Of a DNA stretch of 64,000 nucleotides, positions 7,259-64,000 are shown piece after piece. How positions within the stretch are numbered: position 1 is the first letter of the stretch; the number at the start of each line of letters is the position of its first letter. The translations under genes and the position numbers were made by a program. The stretch spans positions 12,252-76,251 of the IMG/VR virus record IMGVR_UViG_3300011989_000011. One strand, 5' to 3'. The notes under the pieces are model-generated. The model made no database searches, was not told the origin of the DNA, and saw only the letters and a program-made list of their open reading frames with translations. This DNA comes from a virus. Its lineage: Duplodnaviria; Caudoviricetes.

Positions 7259-7362
7259 ACTTTTGATTATCAGCAAATTAAATGCGATTTTGTTTGTTTA
7301 TCTCAGAAAAAATGACTACCTTTACACTGTAATTAAGAAACATATAAACATTAAGAGCAATG
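7255..7362 (+). promoter_or_regulatory. Repeated promoter cassette, copy 1
   Basis: Palindrome 7255-7281; TTTG 7293, 20 nt, TACCTTTA 7317; 36-bp core 7307-7342; TAAGAGCAATG. Confidence 0.85.
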
Positions 7363-7596
7363 ACAGACGAAATCAAAAGACAAGTGATGATTGAAAGCCT
7401 TAGCGCTCTCAGTATCGAGGACTTCAAGAAGTATCTCGACTTCCACAATGAAATGTACGGATTTAAGACCTTCAAGGAGGTGCTTGACTACGACATGGTT
7501 TGCTACCAAGGTATCGGTGATGAACTCGATCCCTCTCAGTTCCGCAAGATGATGGACCATGACAACAAGGTATTAATCGAAGAATATTGTGATTAA
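7360..7596 (+). CDS. Hypothetical acidic protein
   Basis: First ORF after cassette 1. Confidence 0.65.
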   Translation: MTDEIKRQVMIESLSALSIEDFKKYLDFHNEMYGFKTFKEVLDYDMVCYQGIGDELDPSQFRKMMDHDNKVLIEEYCD

Positions 7597-9459: not shown

Positions 9460-9564
9460 TTAATTGGAAATCAAGAAATTAACGAGGTAAATATTTGGTC
9501 AATCCGTAAAAAATGACTACCTTTACAATGTAATTAAGAAACATATTAAACTTTAAGAGCAATG
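9456..9564 (+). promoter_or_regulatory. Repeated promoter cassette, copy 2
   Basis: Palindrome 9456-9482; TTTG 9494; core 9508-9543; TAAGAGCAATG 9554. Confidence 0.85.
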
Positions 9565-10002
9565 GAAAAGCGGACTGAAATTAAGACATTACAGAGCCTC
9601 AAAGGTGACACCTATTTCGCAGATACCTTTTCGGCATCCACAATCGACAAGATGTGCGAGAATATCAAGAACGATTTCCCGATTCTTCTGAACACCGAGT
9701 ATGAGTCTAAGCAGAACAAGAAGGTCGAAATGCTTGAAAAGCAGGTCCACGACCTCAAGCAGAAACTCGAAGATCAGAAAGCAGACTACGAAGGTCAGCT
9801 TGACCGAATGAACAGCACCGCCATTCAGCACATGAACGAGTTCGGCGAGAAGATAGTCTCTTTCATGGGCGATGTTAATGAACCCTTCTACGATGTAGTC
9901 GAGGAGGAGTTCGGAATCGCTTTCATAATCAAGGCGAAGCACAAGAACAACATCCTTCTCACAGAGGATGAGATCGACTACTTAGTCAAGAACTTGAAAT
10001 AA
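9562..10002 (+). CDS. Hypothetical coiled-coil protein
   Basis: 146 aa with heptad-like central region. Confidence 0.6.
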   Translation: MEKRTEIKTLQSLKGDTYFADTFSASTIDKMCENIKNDFPILLNTEYESKQNKKVEMLEKQVHDLKQKLEDQKADYEGQLDRMNSTAIQHMNEFGEKIVSFMGDVNEPFYDVVEEEFGIAFIIKAKHKNNILLTEDEIDYLVKNLK

Positions 10003-11692: not shown

Positions 11693-11904
11693 GCGGATTT
11701 AGAACCTACCCTACTATCCTTACATTCGATAGTGGTGAATCATTAGAAGCCGAAATATCGGTACCTACAAAGGCTTACACGATGGATCAGTTGGAGAGGA
11801 CTATCATCAATAAGATAAATACTAATACCCCCCCCACGTGTTCAAAGATAACGAGAGTTAAAATTTTCAGAAACTACATCGAAGGTAGTTTGTTAAACAA
11901 GTAA
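11689..11904 (+). CDS. Hypothetical protein
   Basis: 71-aa coupled ORF. Confidence 0.5.
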   Translation: MSGFRTYPTILTFDSGESLEAEISVPTKAYTMDQLERTIINKINTNTPPTCSKITRVKIFRNYIEGSLLNK

Positions 11905-11909
11905 TAGCC

Positions 11910-12146
11910 ATGAAGAAAGAAATGATTGAGTACGCAAAGCAATGGATAGAGCAAGGCAAGCCATGTTGCTACAGATATGGTTGGGGTTGGAAAGGTGCAA
12001 GCGCACGCCAACTCAGCAAGGAAGAAGCATTGAAGAAGTTACCTTCATATAGCTTCGGAAAAGGTTTCTATAGCTTATCATTCATCAAGGTTAACGGAGT
12101 AGAGACCTTGGAGTTTAACGAGTTGTCGGAAAACGATATGTGGTAA
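11910..12146 (+). CDS. Hypothetical protein
   Basis: 78-aa ORF, last gene of the early block. Confidence 0.55.
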   Translation: MKKEMIEYAKQWIEQGKPCCYRYGWGWKGASARQLSKEEALKKLPSYSFGKGFYSLSFIKVNGVETLEFNELSENDMW

Positions 12147-12267
12147 CAGATTAAGAAATGGAATCGTAGAAGAATTACCGCCGTGAGGCGTTCATTGCTC
12201 AGAGGAGCAGTTTCTTAATTAGTTTGTGGGAAAAACATTCTGAGACGAAAAATATTTGTTAAAAGTG

Positions 12268-12298
12268 TTTGAGTTTCAAATGTTTTTCCCTATTTTTG
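12268..12298 (+). promoter_or_regulatory. Bacteroidales sigma70-type promoter for portal/MuF
   Basis: TTTG 12268, 19 nt, TATTTTTG 12291 (consensus TAnnTTTG). Confidence 0.75.
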
Positions 12299-12324
12299 TG
12301 GGCAGAAATTAGTGCGCACAATAT

Positions 12325-13776
12325 ATGAAAAAGTTAAGTGAGATATTAGACCGTACCCGTCCTGTCGGAGAGATTATCTCTGATTTGGAGCAGAAGTCTA
12401 CTAAGCCGTTTTCATGGAAGAAGTTCAAGAAGGATTATTATGCTGAGAACCACCGCATAGCAGGTGACGAGTGGGGCAAGATAGACCACATCCATGAAGA
12501 CGGTACGATAGACTTTGCAGCACGTCTTCCCTTACCTATTGAGCAGTTGCTTATCAATCACCTCAATGACTTCATGCACGCTAATCCCGTCAAGAGGGAA
12601 TACTATGGCGTGGATGGCAATGAGACAAGGCAGCAGATAGTAACTGCAATCGAGAGAATATACGAGGGTGCTGACATTGATATTGTCAACATGGAGCGTG
12701 GTTTGGCTTACTTCGCTTCGGGTGAAGTGCTTACCATTTGGTATGCAGTGAAGAAAGAGAATGACGATTATGGATTCCATTCTCAGTACAAGCTAAAGTG
12801 CAAGGTCTATTCTCCTATGGAGGATGATTGCGAGTTATACCCATTGATGGACGAGAACGGTGATCTGATAGCTTTGTCTTTCAAGTATAAGAAGCGTGTC
12901 AAGGATGCGGATGTCTACTACTTTGAGTGCTATACTGCCGACAAGCATTACAAGTGGCACCAAGGCGATGTATCTCAGTGGACCGATGATATTTTCTACA
13001 CCGATGGAGAGGGTAACACTACCTATGGCGATGATATCATCTTAGGTAAGATCCCCGGCATCTACGCTTACAAGAAAGACCCGTCTGTCGCTTATGGTAC
13101 GAGCGAGCTCAGAAACGATATTGAGTATAAGACAGCCGGAGAAGCTGATACGGTAGCCTACAACTTTGCTCCTATCCTCGAAGTCAAGGGTGGCATCAAA
13201 GGCGATGAGAAGAAAGGCGAGACACGAAGGGTCATGAAGGTATCTGAGAACGGAGGTATCAACTACGTGTCTTGGAATGGCTCTACCGATGCAGTCAAGA
13301 ACCACTACGCTATCACGAAGGAGTTGATATTCATGATTAACCAAATGCCGGATATCTCCTTTGATAACATGAAGTCGTTGGGCAACATAGGTTACGATGC
13401 GAGGGTTATGATGTTCACCGATACCATCCTCAGAGTTAAGCGTGAGAGCAAGCCGTTGCTTCAAGCCTACAGACGAGAGGGAAACGTTATCAAGGCTTTC
13501 CTCAAACTGATGAACGTTGATTGGGCCTCGGAGATTGACAAGATTTGGATTAAGCACTCAATAGACATCTACATCCCGAAGGATGAGAGCGCAGAGATTG
13601 ACAAGCGTATGAAAGCCAACGGAGGTAAGCCTATCGAAAGTCAGCTTGAATCCATCCAACGTTATGGTCGAAGCAAAGACCCACAAGCCACCCTCGATGC
13701 TATCAGAAAAGAACAAGAGGATTCGCTTGGAAACACGATTAACTCATTACTCAGCAAGAGTCAAGAAAAAGAATAG
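12325..13776 (+). CDS. Portal protein (SPP1-like)
   Basis: 483 aa, upstream of MuF; resembles Bacteroidales SPP1-type portals (KCKVYSPM, YNFAPILEVKG). Confidence 0.75.
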   Translation: MKKLSEILDRTRPVGEIISDLEQKSTKPFSWKKFKKDYYAENHRIAGDEWGKIDHIHEDGTIDFAARLPLPIEQLLINHLNDFMHANPVKREYYGVDGNETRQQIVTAIERIYEGADIDIVNMERGLAYFASGEVLTIWYAVKKENDDYGFHSQYKLKCKVYSPMEDDCELYPLMDENGDLIALSFKYKKRVKDADVYYFECYTADKHYKWHQGDVSQWTDDIFYTDGEGNTTYGDDIILGKIPGIYAYKKDPSVAYGTSELRNDIEYKTAGEADTVAYNFAPILEVKGGIKGDEKKGETRRVMKVSENGGINYVSWNGSTDAVKNHYAITKELIFMINQMPDISFDNMKSLGNIGYDARVMMFTDTILRVKRESKPLLQAYRREGNVIKAFLKLMNVDWASEIDKIWIKHSIDIYIPKDESAEIDKRMKANGGKPIESQLESIQRYGRSKDPQATLDAIRKEQEDSLGNTINSLLSKSQEKE

Positions 13777-19989: not shown

Positions 19990-20724
19990 AAAAAGAACGA
20001 TGTTAAAGCTCAGATTAAGAGCAACTTTCAGACAATGAGTTTCGAATCAGCAGTTAAGGCTAACGAAGCCCTCCTTCCCGAGTACATCAACGAGTACGGC
20101 AAGAAAAGCTACGTCTCAATGCGCAGCTACTACGCCAAGCATCAGACAACCGAAGGTGTCGCAGCAGAGCCTACGGCAGATGTCGCTACACTCGAAGCAC
20201 CTGTCACAGAGACAGCCATAGAGGTTGAGCCTAAGGTGGCAGACGAGTTCGAGGATAACCTTGAAGCCGTTGAACCCGATCAGCCGGAGGAGTTGAAGCT
20301 AACAACGGATGTCTGCTTGGAGAAGCCTTTCTCATTCATCGGGTTCGAATTGAATGAGGAGAATGTTCGCAATCTGATAGATAGCGACAATAGCGTCCTC
20401 AAAGAGAAGTGCTTGGTTCGGGAAGTCTTCGAGGTGACTGGTGACTTTCAGTTCTCTCACATCTGCGAAATGAAGGTAGCCAACAACGGCAAGGGTTGGA
20501 ATACATGGGATGATACCAAGGACGGACAGAAGTCTGAGGATTGGGTTACTTCTCACAAGAACGGCAACATGAGAAAGAGTAACTTCTGCTTCCCTGTCGG
20601 AGAGAAGCATCAGCTCATCCACTACGAGTATATCAAGTACGCTTTGCAGCACTACTACCTTGATCGCCTTGCATCTGAGGATGGTGCCGGAATGATTCAG
20701 AAGATTATCATCAACGAGGATTAA
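19987..20724 (+). CDS. Hypothetical acidic protein
   Basis: 245 aa with an acidic low-complexity linker. Confidence 0.65.
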   Translation: MKKNDVKAQIKSNFQTMSFESAVKANEALLPEYINEYGKKSYVSMRSYYAKHQTTEGVAAEPTADVATLEAPVTETAIEVEPKVADEFEDNLEAVEPDQPEELKLTTDVCLEKPFSFIGFELNEENVRNLIDSDNSVLKEKCLVREVFEVTGDFQFSHICEMKVANNGKGWNTWDDTKDGQKSEDWVTSHKNGNMRKSNFCFPVGEKHQLIHYEYIKYALQHYYLDRLASEDGAGMIQKIIINED

Positions 20725-20771
20725 GAAACAGACGGGAGGGTTCTGTACCCTCCCCTTTAATACTAAGAGCA

Positions 20772-21119
20772 ATGAAGTTAGTTACATCAGCAATCAAGAA
20801 AGAGCTTGCGAAATATCCACTGGGTTCACAAGATGGCAAGAATGGCGATGCTAAGGCTATAGCACGCTTCTTCTTTCCTATGGGCTCATGGACGTGGTAC
20901 GTTACTGAAGCCAACCTACAGACGGGTGAGGCGTTCGGAGTAACGATAAATGGTTCGGGCGAGGGTGAGTATGGTTACTTCAATCTGAACGAACTGCAAT
21001 CTCTCAGAGTCAGAGGTTTGGGTGTTGAGCGAGACATCTGCTTCACTCCTACCAAGCTGAAAGACATCAAAGACGAGTATCTACAGAAGAAACTTAAAAG
21101 TATGGGTTATGTTGCTTAA
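20772..21119 (+). CDS. DUF2958-family protein
   Basis: YPLGSQDG..ARFFFPMGSWTWYVTEA..GEGEYGYFNLNEL..VERD. Confidence 0.8.
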   Translation: MKLVTSAIKKELAKYPLGSQDGKNGDAKAIARFFFPMGSWTWYVTEANLQTGEAFGVTINGSGEGEYGYFNLNELQSLRVRGLGVERDICFTPTKLKDIKDEYLQKKLKSMGYVA

Positions 21120-30815: not shown

Positions 30816-30845
30816 TTGTAATTTGAAAGATTTTGATTATCTTTG
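30816..30845 (+). promoter_or_regulatory. Canonical Bacteroidales promoter with no protein-sized ORF downstream
   Basis: TTTG 30816 and TATCTTTG 30838-30845. Confidence 0.7.
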
Positions 30846-30849
30846 CAAC

Positions 30850-30986
30850 GTTTCTTAATTACAAGGCCGATGGCACTCATTGCTCGCCAAGGCTGAGTAA
30901 TTCTCTTTGTGCGTTCGCCCGTGACGGGTAGACGCACATTTTGTTTATGGGTAAAATAAAAGCCCAACCGATTGGTTGAGCCTTTT
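30850..30986 (+). ncRNA. Candidate antisense sRNA (~135 nt)
   Basis: Own promoter; 5' GTTTCTTAATTACA and internal CATTGCTC complement early-gene leaders; hairpin 30908-30938; terminator-like stem 30957-30986. Confidence 0.55.
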
Positions 30987-31581: not shown

Positions 31582-31589
31582 CGCAAGAA

Positions 31590-31741
31590 AGCGTGTGAAG
31601 ATGCACGCAACAGAACTAATCGTAAACTTCATTGCTCTTAACATGAGAAGTGGTTCTACTCGATGATGGTCTGCTTGCGTCATGTACGCTCGCAGACCAT
31701 TTTATTTATTGTTTTATTAATCTAAAGCTAAGAGTAATGAA
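31590..31741 (+). promoter_or_regulatory. Structured 5' leader able to sequester the scaffold start codon
   Basis: TTCATTGCTCTTA 31628-31640 pairs with TAAGAGTAATGAA 31729-31741; hairpins 31591-31608 and 31666-31700. Confidence 0.6.
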
Positions 31742-62567: not shown

Positions 62568-63792
62568 CTATATAGTCGATAACCTTTCTGTTGGCTTCAT
62601 CCACCTTCTTCATGTCGAATTTGATATAGGTGTCAGTAACTGAATACCCTCCATGCCCTAATGCAGCAGCGATTGTCTCTTTTGGGATATCCAACTCAGC
62701 AGCCGTTGTTGCCCATGAATGTCTTGCCCAATATAGAGATATGTTAGGAAACAAGCCGATACGTTTGGTTATCAGTTTATGCTTCTTGCTATTTGGTTTC
62801 CACTTCGGGTTAGGAATCATCTGAACGGGCCCGATACGTTTCAGTTGTCGGTCAATCTTCATCGTTAGGCTCTTGTAAGACGAAAATCCCTCCCCAAAGG
62901 ATAGGAGTAAGTCTTTTCCTCTGTACTTATCTATGAGTTCCAATGCTTCGGGTTCAACCTTGATATCATACAAGCGGCCAGTCTTGGCACGGTTGTACAT
63001 GATCCGTCCGTTTTGAATCTCAGTTAGAGCGCATAGGTCAACGAGGTTGATACCTATCAGATAGAAGGTAAGTTTGAAGATATCCACATACCTTTGCTGC
63101 CATTTCTCGCAAGGATAGGAGAAAAGGGTTCTAATGTCTTCGACTGACATAGAACGCTTCGGTGTCGCTTCGGGTCTGATTTTGAACTGCCGGAAAGGGT
63201 AGAACTGAGTGATATTGTTGTCGATGGCATCATTAAAGACAGCACGAATATTTCTGAAATGAATGTTGCGCCCGTTTACGGAATGGTTGTACTTGGTAAG
63301 GAACAACTCGAAATCAGTCAGCCAATCCTTTGTAATGTCTTCGAACTTCAATAGATTTGCGTTTGGCGCAAACTCCTTTATCCGTTTCAGCGTTATAGCA
63401 TACTTCTCGACAGTGCTTGACGCTTTGAGTCTTTTCATATACTCATCATACCTATAAAGAAAGAGAGATTTATCTATATGAACGGGAGAAAGCATATCAG
63501 ATATACGATTCTTTATCTGAGTAGCGTTCATTAGTGCGAGATCGCCTTTTTCGGTAAGCTCCATAAGGATGTTGTCAAACTGACTTTTGCGAGTTTGGAT
63601 AAAGTTGTTAAGTTTGGCTTTGTTAGGATTGTCCTTCACACGCTCCTTCACAGAATCCCATTGCGAGGGTTGCAGTTTCAGTCCAATAGGATATTGCGCT
63701 GACTTGCCATGCTTCGTGATGGTTATCTTCAACGGACACTCACCTTTGGCGTTCTTTGAGCGAGTATCTAAGTAAAGTTTCGTAGTTGTCAT
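62554..63792 (-). CDS. int: Tyrosine integrase with arm-binding and SAM-like domains
   Basis: YNRAKTG, YWARHSWAT, ALGH, TDTYI; N-terminal KLYLDTR. Confidence 0.95.
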   Translation of the reverse strand: MTTTKLYLDTRSKNAKGECPLKITITKHGKSAQYPIGLKLQPSQWDSVKERVKDNPNKAKLNNFIQTRKSQFDNILMELTEKGDLALMNATQIKNRISDMLSPVHIDKSLFLYRYDEYMKRLKASSTVEKYAITLKRIKEFAPNANLLKFEDITKDWLTDFELFLTKYNHSVNGRNIHFRNIRAVFNDAIDNNITQFYPFRQFKIRPEATPKRSMSVEDIRTLFSYPCEKWQQRYVDIFKLTFYLIGINLVDLCALTEIQNGRIMYNRAKTGRLYDIKVEPEALELIDKYRGKDLLLSFGEGFSSYKSLTMKIDRQLKRIGPVQMIPNPKWKPNSKKHKLITKRIGLFPNISLYWARHSWATTAAELDIPKETIAAALGHGGYSVTDTYIKFDMKKVDEANRKVIDYIENRH

Positions 63793-63803
63793 TGCTCCAA
63801 GAT

Positions 63804-63878
63804 TTGCAAGTTATTTGCAAGTTTTTCTGAGCAAACTTGCAAGTAATTGCTAAGTTTTGCCCAAGAAAATTGCAGAAG
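63804..63878. repeat. Phased TTGC(AAGT) repeats; candidate att arm-type sites
   Basis: TTGCAAGT at 63804, 63815, 63837; TTGC variants at 63847, 63857, 63870. Confidence 0.55.
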
Positions 63879-63925
63879 TTGTTTCTTAATTACGTTCCAA
63901 ATGCCTTGATTTCAAGGTCTTTTAG

Positions 63926-64000
63926 CGGAAAGACGGGGATTCGAACCCCGGATACCCTTTGGAGGTATACACGCTTTCCAGGCGTGCCTCTTAAGCCACT
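63926..64000 (-). tRNA. tRNA-Ser(GGA), 5' end beyond the window; likely integration site
   Basis: Reverse complement gives CACGC-CTGGAAA-GCGTG, a long variable arm, CGGGG-TTCGAAT-CCCCG and TCTTTCC-G. Confidence 0.92.

Follow-up and report, generated by a model that had tools for sequence, protein, structure and literature searches.

In Bacteroides, the small RNA (sRNA) FopS-14 is derived from a 3' UTR, as sRNAs of this type do together with the terminator of the parent mRNA, GibS is an sRNA with two seeds (R1 and R2), and such sRNAs block initiation by pairing near the start codon, with no Shine-Dalgarno sequence involved (PMC11697453). Pairing between the 5' and the 3' UTR of one and the same mRNA has been described for icaR in Staphylococcus aureus (PMC3868564) and for hbs in Bacillus subtilis (PMC5737220), the icaR mRNA being monocistronic and relying on one anti-Shine-Dalgarno motif, UCCCCUG (PMC3868564). 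Phages P1 and P7 encode the c4 antisense RNA within the immI operon, as outlined in the part of PMC8198154 that cites Citron and Schuster (1990).

Here we analyse a 64,000-nt stretch of phage DNA (hereafter the window, whose coordinates are used throughout), which comprises bases 12252-76251 of a 76,251-bp IMG/VR virus record. From its sequence and from folding models we propose, with moderate confidence, that an element at 12175-12221 is the core of an antisense module on the + strand, situated in the 3' UTR of an operon driven by a cassette and ending at 12146, and that this module would mask a leader shared by several genes together with the AUG that follows it. The proposed module resembles FopS and GibS in lying on the coding strand of a 3' UTR, in presenting a single-stranded seed to the initiation region, in using two blocks and in belonging to the same phylum. 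Unlike FopS and GibS, it is encoded by a phage and would target the phage's own genes through a shared leader tag rather than through individually evolved sites; it has no sequence or Rfam kinship with either sRNA, and one of its blocks would pair with the 5' end of the mRNA (in the window clade). As in icaR and hbs, a motif in the 3' UTR complements the ribosome-loading region of the same transcript, with a predicted block of initiation and a duplex that RNase III could cleave, but in contrast to icaR there are two blocks (12 bp plus 9-13 bp), the leader is common to several operons, the mRNA spans several cistrons, and it is the AUG, not a Shine-Dalgarno sequence, that would be covered. The likeness to c4 is that of a putative phage regulatory RNA residing in the operon of its target and carrying short blocks complementary to the ribosome-binding region. 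The c4 RNA likewise acts through two blocks. The module differs from c4 in that c4 lies upstream of its target, is cut from the 5' part of the transcript and controls the icd/ant pair for immunity, and the two share no sequence similarity.

An Rfam 15 scan of 12000-12450 with E values up to 10 returned noise only, with no C4 family and no GibS or FopS match, a scan of the whole window at gathering thresholds found only a tRNA, and our search of the literature found no description of this system. Three features of processed 3'-UTR-derived sRNAs are seen in silico: the unit follows a stop codon on the coding strand with no promoter of its own, it ends in a predicted terminator, and it has a conserved seed that is accessible in folding models.

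Results

The locus and its relatives

The phage, a gut-type Bacteroidota phage, has promoters on the Bacteroidota pattern (TTTG and, about 20 nt on, TAnnTTTG). Because the integrase gene adjoins a tRNA fragment at the right end of the window, the phage is probably temperate. The element is placed between a 78-aa ORF of unassigned function (11910-12146) and the portal gene (12325-13776), the latter with matches to PF05133 and phrog_64. The temporal class 'early' of the upstream operon and the cassettes is putative. Megablast searches against GenBank phages gave no match, and the GTDB genomes contained no match to the portal and none to the element pattern. Relatives were defined by their portal homologues: L010, L012 and L013 at 71-74% identity, L014 and L030-L032 at 56-57%, L020, L021, L022 and L033-L036 at 51-53%, as well as more distant ones. 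All of them are metagenomic contigs, and they represent few independent lineages.

A leader motif and a start motif shared by genes of the first 33 kb

The leader at 7330-7364 on the + strand, which serves as the example target, has the form TAATTAAGAAAC-N13-GAGCAATGAC. Other target leaders on the + strand start at 9531, 18061 (with the start motif GAACAATG), 18284 and 19955, and a further target is the intercistronic leader starting at 20721, also on the + strand. The 12-mer TAATTAAGAAAC, the predicted 5' end of the cassette mRNAs, has eight exact copies in the window and nine in the 76-kb record. Five of the copies in the window are on the + strand, each inside a promoter-plus-leader cassette of about 100 bp (a sixth + strand copy, about 100 bp before the window, was left out of the alignment), and three are on the minus strand, in the leader of the integrase (a minus-strand gene), in the element and in a unit at 30850. 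The truly antisense copies number two, one in the element and one at the 5' end of the sRNA-like unit at 30850.

These motifs are over-represented, with nine copies of GTTTCTTAAT against 0.2 expected and 20 copies of GAGCAATGAA with at most one mismatch against 7.3 expected. The motif GAGCAATG has 14 forward copies, all in the first 33 kb, and four reverse copies; as a start motif it is restricted to the first 33 kb and the integrase gene, a distribution that, judged by sequence, is as expected of a regulon. Within the phage's first 33 kb, at least eight gene leaders are distinguished by having both the leader motif and the start motif. Across the whole record the two-motif combination is found in eight sense leaders and, on the + strand in antisense and in pairing order, once, in this element. 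Chance occurrence of the element was ruled out by the copy statistics together with its conservation.

Intercistronic regions hold weaker copies of the leader, and the gene before such a copy often has its stop codon in the TAA of TTAAGAAAC. This is so at the junctions at window 20718-20776, L010 6757 and L012 986, where AGAGCAATG follows TTAAGAAAC after 3-40 nt, and in the window a GC hairpin, GGGAGGGTTCTGTACCCTCCC (20730-20755), sits between leader and start motifs. More generally, a large fraction of the genes in this phage group have (A)AGAGCAATG(A/G) as their start-codon context, as seen over the whole L020 locus (about 13 genes), in L023 and in bases 1-33000 of the phage (14 forward copies); it persists in relatives devoid of TTAAGAAAC and looks like an initiation signal specific to this phage group. 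The integrase leader (minus strand, window 63788-63960) begins with the 12-mer (63892-63881) and ends in GAGCAATGAC at the start codon, and the integrase may thus belong to the leader-tagged set as well. This leader adjoins the 3' part of a tRNA gene cut by the end of the window, which is the likely attachment site.

Anatomy of the element

The element contains TTCATTGCTC (12191-12200), the reverse complement of the start-codon motif GAGCAATGA, followed by the 9-nt spacer AGAGGAGCA (12201-12209) and by GTTTCTTAATTA (12210-12221), the reverse complement of the 12-mer TAATTAAGAAAC. Reading the sequence showed that the coordinates originally given for the motifs, the spacer, the hairpins and a mini-ORF were all right, and the two-block complementarity to a cassette leader that had been predicted was found, the blocks matching the 7330-7364 leader over 12/12 and 9-10 bp.

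Read as RNA on the + strand, the TAA stop codon of the 78-aa ORF (12144-12146) is followed by a proximal 3' UTR (12147-12178) that holds the leader-like AUUAAGAAAU, and then by hairpin 1 (CGCC-GUGA-GGCG, 12179-12190), which has a 4-bp GC stem and a GNRA-type loop. The anti-start block UUCAUUGCUC (12191-12200) complements GAGCAAUGAA, the start codon and flanks of the cassette-driven genes, and doubles as the 5' arm of hairpin 2 (AUUGCUC-AGAG-GAGCAGU, 12194-12211; core TGCTC-AGAG-GAGCA, 12196-12209). The anti-leader block GUUUCUUAAUUA (12210-12221), the exact complement of the 12-mer, falls in a single-stranded linker, beyond which MFE folds and RNAalifold place a long terminator hairpin, GGGAAAAACAUU ... 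AAUGUUUUUCCC, and then UAUUUUUG (12228-12299, the hairpin itself spanning 12228-12290). The original prediction of a 3'-UTR-derived RNA on the + strand is partly supported, conservation, co-variation and the + strand terminator all favouring the + strand; the unit, however, is larger than 12175-12221 and reaches from the stop codon (12146) as far as the U tract of the terminator, at about 12299. Judged by sequence, it has the anatomy of a 3'-UTR RNA, with the seeds first and the terminator after. No TAnnTTTG box was found by sequence read on the + strand within 11900-12175, and in every lineage the element starts 0-205 nt past the last stop codon, on the coding strand.

In the unprocessed RNA, the leader-like AUUAAGAAAU at 12150-12159 is able to pair with the anti-leader: 12147-12221 folds with an MFE of -20.7 kcal/mol and a stem 12150-12159/12210-12219, and the anti-leader of the window has an unpaired probability of 0.07 in the long RNA, as against 0.78 when the RNA is short. 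We treat the stem as specific to the window, the relatives showing weak purine-rich matches only. We rejected it as a general feature; it is real in the window and not clearly conserved elsewhere.

Conservation in relatives

The element is found just upstream of the portal promoter in ten lineages with portal identities of 51-72%, despite differences in the upstream gene, and the order of its parts is kept: GC hairpin, anti-start, second hairpin, anti-leader, and terminator hairpin with U tract. Hairpin 1 (CCGCCGTGAGGCG) is identical in seven lineages, and in L035 it reads GCGUC-AGUA-GACGC, with one compensatory change from C-G to U-A, and across the lineages every cell of the stem alignment is paired; the linker that leads to the anti-start is TT or TTT. 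The anti-start C(A/G)TTGC is kept in nine of the ten lineages (CATTGA in L034), and in its L035 form, CGUUGCUC / CGTTGCTC, a G.U wobble preserves the match to GAGCAAUG on the + strand. Hairpin 2 is retained in six of the seven distinct variants with hairpin 1 (7/8 aligned loci) by means of five different stem sequences, and exceeds shuffles of its own interior in stability, at p values of 0.001-0.08 depending on the lineage; L010 is without it. The anti-leader GTTTCTT(A/T)A is kept in 10/10 lineages. The clade of L020, L033 and L034 is without hairpin 1, and the anti-start of L020 and L034 is weak. Conservation of motifs and spacing had been set beforehand as the point on which the original prediction could be refuted: motifs, order and position are kept, whereas the gap between the two blocks is not fixed and varies from 4 to 15 nt across lineages.

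An ordinary terminator consisting of a hairpin and a T run takes the place of the element in L013 (74% portal identity), L023, L040 and L041. L013 seems to keep the start motif, and its contig starts inside a leader, which makes this case ambiguous. L022 has no element at the portal site and carries both anti-motifs in pairing order elsewhere, in a leader bounded by a promoter and a terminator (13180-13340). A scan of JGI metagenomes yielded one near-identical partial copy of the L021 type (L027), repeats of known variants and a chance match (L025), and a scan for further G.U-variant copies returned the L035 lineage and chance matches only.

L010 has two direct repeats of about 45 nt (CTTAATCGAACCTTT.TGGAATTGAAAGA...) between the last gene and the element (9700-9830), which are absent from the window. 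The three phages of the L014 clade share a conserved tract of about 90 nt upstream of the element (CGTAGTT.GCGTGTAG...CCTACCCCACTA...CCGCTATGCGAG), at 5366-5455 in L014 and at the equivalent places in L031 and L030, which may represent a further structured RNA within that 3' UTR.

Predicted pairing with the leaders

The leaders are themselves nearly unstructured (0 to -3 kcal/mol). Duplexfold energies of the elements with their own leaders range from -20 to -33 kcal/mol in the eight lineages with hairpin 1 and from -15 to -20 kcal/mol in L020 and L034, against shuffle means of about -5 to -14 kcal/mol for ordinary leaders, and most own-leader pairs have z scores of -4 to -10. Weaker z scores, from +0.4 to -3.3, were obtained for four structured or atypical leaders, among them the hairpin-containing leader at 20716 of the window. 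In the window (the 18061 leader was left out of the duplex-energy set), the four promoter-cassette leaders give -22 to -26 kcal/mol versus shuffle means of about -9 (z -5 to -6.6), and the intercistronic 20716 leader has a z score of -1.7. Cofolding yields a ddG of -13 to -22 kcal/mol in five lineages and of about -8 in L020 (unstructured leaders); the cofolds with leaders keep hairpin 1, melt hairpin 2 and lengthen the anti-start pairing to 9-13 bp. In nine of ten short RNAs (hairpin 1 to terminator, 89-125 nt) the anti-leader has an unpaired probability of 0.54-0.86 and, being open in these models, would fit the role of a toehold.

Within the window, the strongest partner is predicted to be the leader of the operon itself (9529/9531-9566), with -25.4 kcal/mol and a ddG of -16.4, and this speaks for a strictly cis-acting version of the same RNA, in which the 3' end of the ~2.8-kb operon mRNA from the 9531 cassette would pair with its own 5' leader to form a panhandle that closes the first start codon and shields the ends from nucleases. 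Every relative has a leader-bearing cassette on the same strand 1.3-4.3 kb upstream, the blocks stand in the colinear antiparallel order needed for an intramolecular stem, and precedents exist (PMC3868564; PMC5737220). A restriction to cis nonetheless appears unlikely to us: the cassette leaders are nearly identical, so that pairing in trans is equally possible, the leader motif of the L014 clade is not at the 5' end of the mRNA, stable pairing is uncertain with ribosomes translating the mRNA and 2-4 kb to bridge, and separate candidate RNAs have the same anti-motifs, pointing to action in trans.

Co-variation and co-occurrence with the leaders

Just upstream of AAGAAAC, the leaders of the window, L010 and L012 read GTAATT, those of the L014 clade AACATT, those of L021 and L035 GCAATT, and those of L020 and L034 CGTA or TAATA. 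The anti-leader tracks the leader variant of each clade (TAATT-, ACATT-, GCAATT- and ATA-AAGAAAC). The longest AAGAAAC-anchored match to the leaders of the same clade amounts to 12-13 nt in the window, L021, L031 and L035, to 11 nt in L010 and L012, to 10-11 nt in L020 and L034, to 9 nt in L014 and to 7 nt in L030, and when the L020 and L034 elements are compared with the leaders of the TTAAGAAAC clades the match falls to 7 nt. The exceptions are L014 and L030, whose anti-leaders have a 1-nt insertion with unchanged leaders, which would give a bulge. In a set of 26 portal-linked loci, whose counts are not phylogenetically independent, all 11 loci with sense two-motif leaders carry exactly one + strand antisense module, and 14 of the 15 loci that lack such leaders have no module, the exception being a truncated contig.

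Co-variation of this kind would also be expected from a protein that reads the DNA motif in either orientation, or from gene conversion between repeats. We weighed the idea that the motifs are read as DNA, by a regulator of the phage that would occupy both the TTAAGAAAC-type sites where the cassettes start and the inverted copy, which lies about 75-85 bp ahead of the portal promoter, and would in this way couple the transcription of cassettes and portal gene. Sites recognized by a co-evolving DNA-binding protein should co-vary, and the distance to the portal -7 box is roughly constant (76-83 bp) in the window and L014 clades. We consider a DNA operator quite improbable all the same, given that promoterless sense copies exist between cistrons, always on the coding strand and often over the preceding TAA stop, and that the start motif is anchored on the start codons of many genes inside operons, a feature of the RNA level. 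Moreover, the 1-nt insertions in L030 and L014 and the A-to-G wobble in L035 are tolerable in RNA pairing and disruptive to a DNA site, and in L021 and L035 a terminator lies between element and promoter.

Terminator and functional strand

Eight lineages share a long hairpin downstream of the anti-leader, and the last base of this hairpin directly adjoins the portal -7 box (arms 12228-12239 and 12279-12290 and -7 box TATTTTTG at 12291-12298 in the window). RNAalifold on these eight lineages supports 18 pairs in this hairpin, nine of them with compensatory changes; its G.U pairs are valid on the + strand only, and several become C.A mismatches on the minus strand. A U-rich tract follows the hairpin (UAUUUUUG in the window, U7 in the L014 clade), and in silico the two together have the features of an intrinsic terminator and are predicted to act as a Rho-independent one. 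In L021 and L035, a separate strong terminator on the + strand comes right after the anti-leader. A consensus scan also flagged hairpin 2, with its T-rich tail, as terminator-like on the + strand; hairpin 2 as the sole terminator of the operon was downgraded in view of the longer co-varying hairpin downstream and of the separate terminators in L021 and L035. At 12228-12298 of the window, the portal -33 TTTG/CAAA palindrome lies in the terminator loop and the U tract is the -7 box itself: terminator and portal promoter overlap base for base, an arrangement that may couple read-through to portal expression.

The terminator-like score of hairpin 2 and its T-rich tail, the plain terminators found at this site in L013, L023, L040 and L041, and the repeated and mobile nature of the cassettes would all suit a terminator region joined to a non-functional relic of an inverted cassette that occasional gene conversion keeps leader-like. 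The original prediction had likewise entertained a decayed inverted cassette, which misfits the co-variation and the compensatory changes in the hairpins. Two short motifs alone are conserved, and not the spacer, the flanks or the promoter half of the cassette, and this conservation extends to portal identities as low as 51%, at which neutral intergenic DNA can no longer be aligned; hairpin 2 would be dispensable for termination, since a separate terminator, and a stronger one, comes after it; and hairpin 1 is invariant in spite of having no role in termination. These observations render a relic distinctly unlikely.

The U.G pairs of hairpin 2 in the window and in L012 are valid solely on the + strand, the GNRA-type loop of hairpin 1 forms on the + strand only, and the A-to-G change in L035 keeps a G.U pair with the AUG on the + strand and turns ATG into ACG on the minus strand. 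Because the G.U pairs, the terminators, the hairpin 1 loop and the L035 change fit the + strand only, the sequence data favour the + strand as the functional one. That the minus strand is functional, be it as a mini-leader for the peptide MNASRR* put forward in the original prediction (ATG AAC GCC TCA CGG CGG TAA, 12195-12175) or as an antisense or decoy RNA soaking up the anti-leader sRNA, is scarcely credible: the order of 12-mer, spacer and GAGCAATGAA is that of a real leader and such an RNA would complement the sRNA candidate at 30850-30986, but the peptide is not conserved (frameshift in L014, other lengths or stops in L010 and L012, ACG in L035), no conserved TTTG/TAnnTTTG promoter was found upstream in the sequences read, the G.U pairs turn to C.A mismatches, the L021 and L035 terminators are specific to the + strand, and no minus-strand gene follows. 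The DNA operator, the terminator relic and the minus-strand function each explain less than the antisense module.

Related antisense units in the window and in L022

An sRNA candidate at 30838-30986 on the + strand has its own promoter, is bounded by a terminator, and contains the anti-start CATTGCTC, an anti-leader and a GC hairpin with a GUGA-containing loop. Its anti-leader comes first and its anti-start second, an order that is not colinear for a single duplex, whereas the element has the blocks in pairing order and is the promoterless tail of an mRNA. The leader of the head operon (31583-31741, + strand) has kept the anti-start CATTGCTC and lost the anti-leader block, which its L022 homologue keeps: the L022 head-operon leader (13180-13340) reads CATTGCT-N20-GTTTCTTAATTAC, in pairing order, between promoter and terminator, and all that remains in the head leader of the window (31583-31705) is TTCATTGCTCTTAA, which over 14 nt is exactly complementary to the start region of the cassettes. 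On the strength of these sequences, the element would make a third, differently built member of one antisense network with the 30838-30986 unit and the head leader.

Discussion

Support in silico for the antisense module comes from its sequences, their conservation and co-variation with the leaders, the + strand structures, the terminator and the pairing energetics. Accumulation of the RNA, its processing, pairing in vivo and an effect on translation are predictions of this reading. In the mechanism that we propose, the exposed anti-leader block would nucleate pairing with UAAUUAAGAAAC at or near the 5' end of the shared leaders. Hairpin 2, which half-buries the anti-start, would open next, and the anti-start would then cover the AUG, giving a duplex of 12 bp plus 9-13 bp that would block the loading of ribosomes and might be a substrate of RNase III. 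The Rho-independent terminator predicted at 12228-12299 would stop transcription at the portal promoter. The module could work while still attached to the end of the complete mRNA, or after its release as a 3' fragment of about 125 nt, and the outcome would be negative feedback on, or shut-off of, the leader-tagged set with its at least eight leaders in the first 33 kb.

A broader version of this proposal, which we put forward tentatively and as a possibility only, is that the phage tags a set of genes with an RNA 'address' composed of leader motif and start context and silences the set by several complementary RNAs, one of them in the 3' end of a tagged operon itself, so as to obtain a self-limiting timer that needs no protein. 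A tagged mRNA would in that case be both lock and key: it could fold back on itself as a 5'-3' panhandle, or, on accumulating, it could silence its sister operons. The proposed antisense control lends itself to a direct test, its motifs being short, exact and co-varying.

Translation in gut Bacteroidota proceeds without Shine-Dalgarno pairing, and to our knowledge gene regulation in the phages of gut Bacteroidota is almost unknown. If the proposed antisense module is real, these phages would mark a class of genes by a shared RNA leader and control it by complementary RNAs, in a simple antisense circuit for feedback or shut-off with one of the RNAs in the 3' UTR of a marked operon. It would also be a rare bacterial instance of pairing between a 3' UTR and a 5' leader, here across a polycistronic phage mRNA, and the pair of leader and anti-leader might serve as a portable translational switch in Bacteroides or Prevotella genetics.
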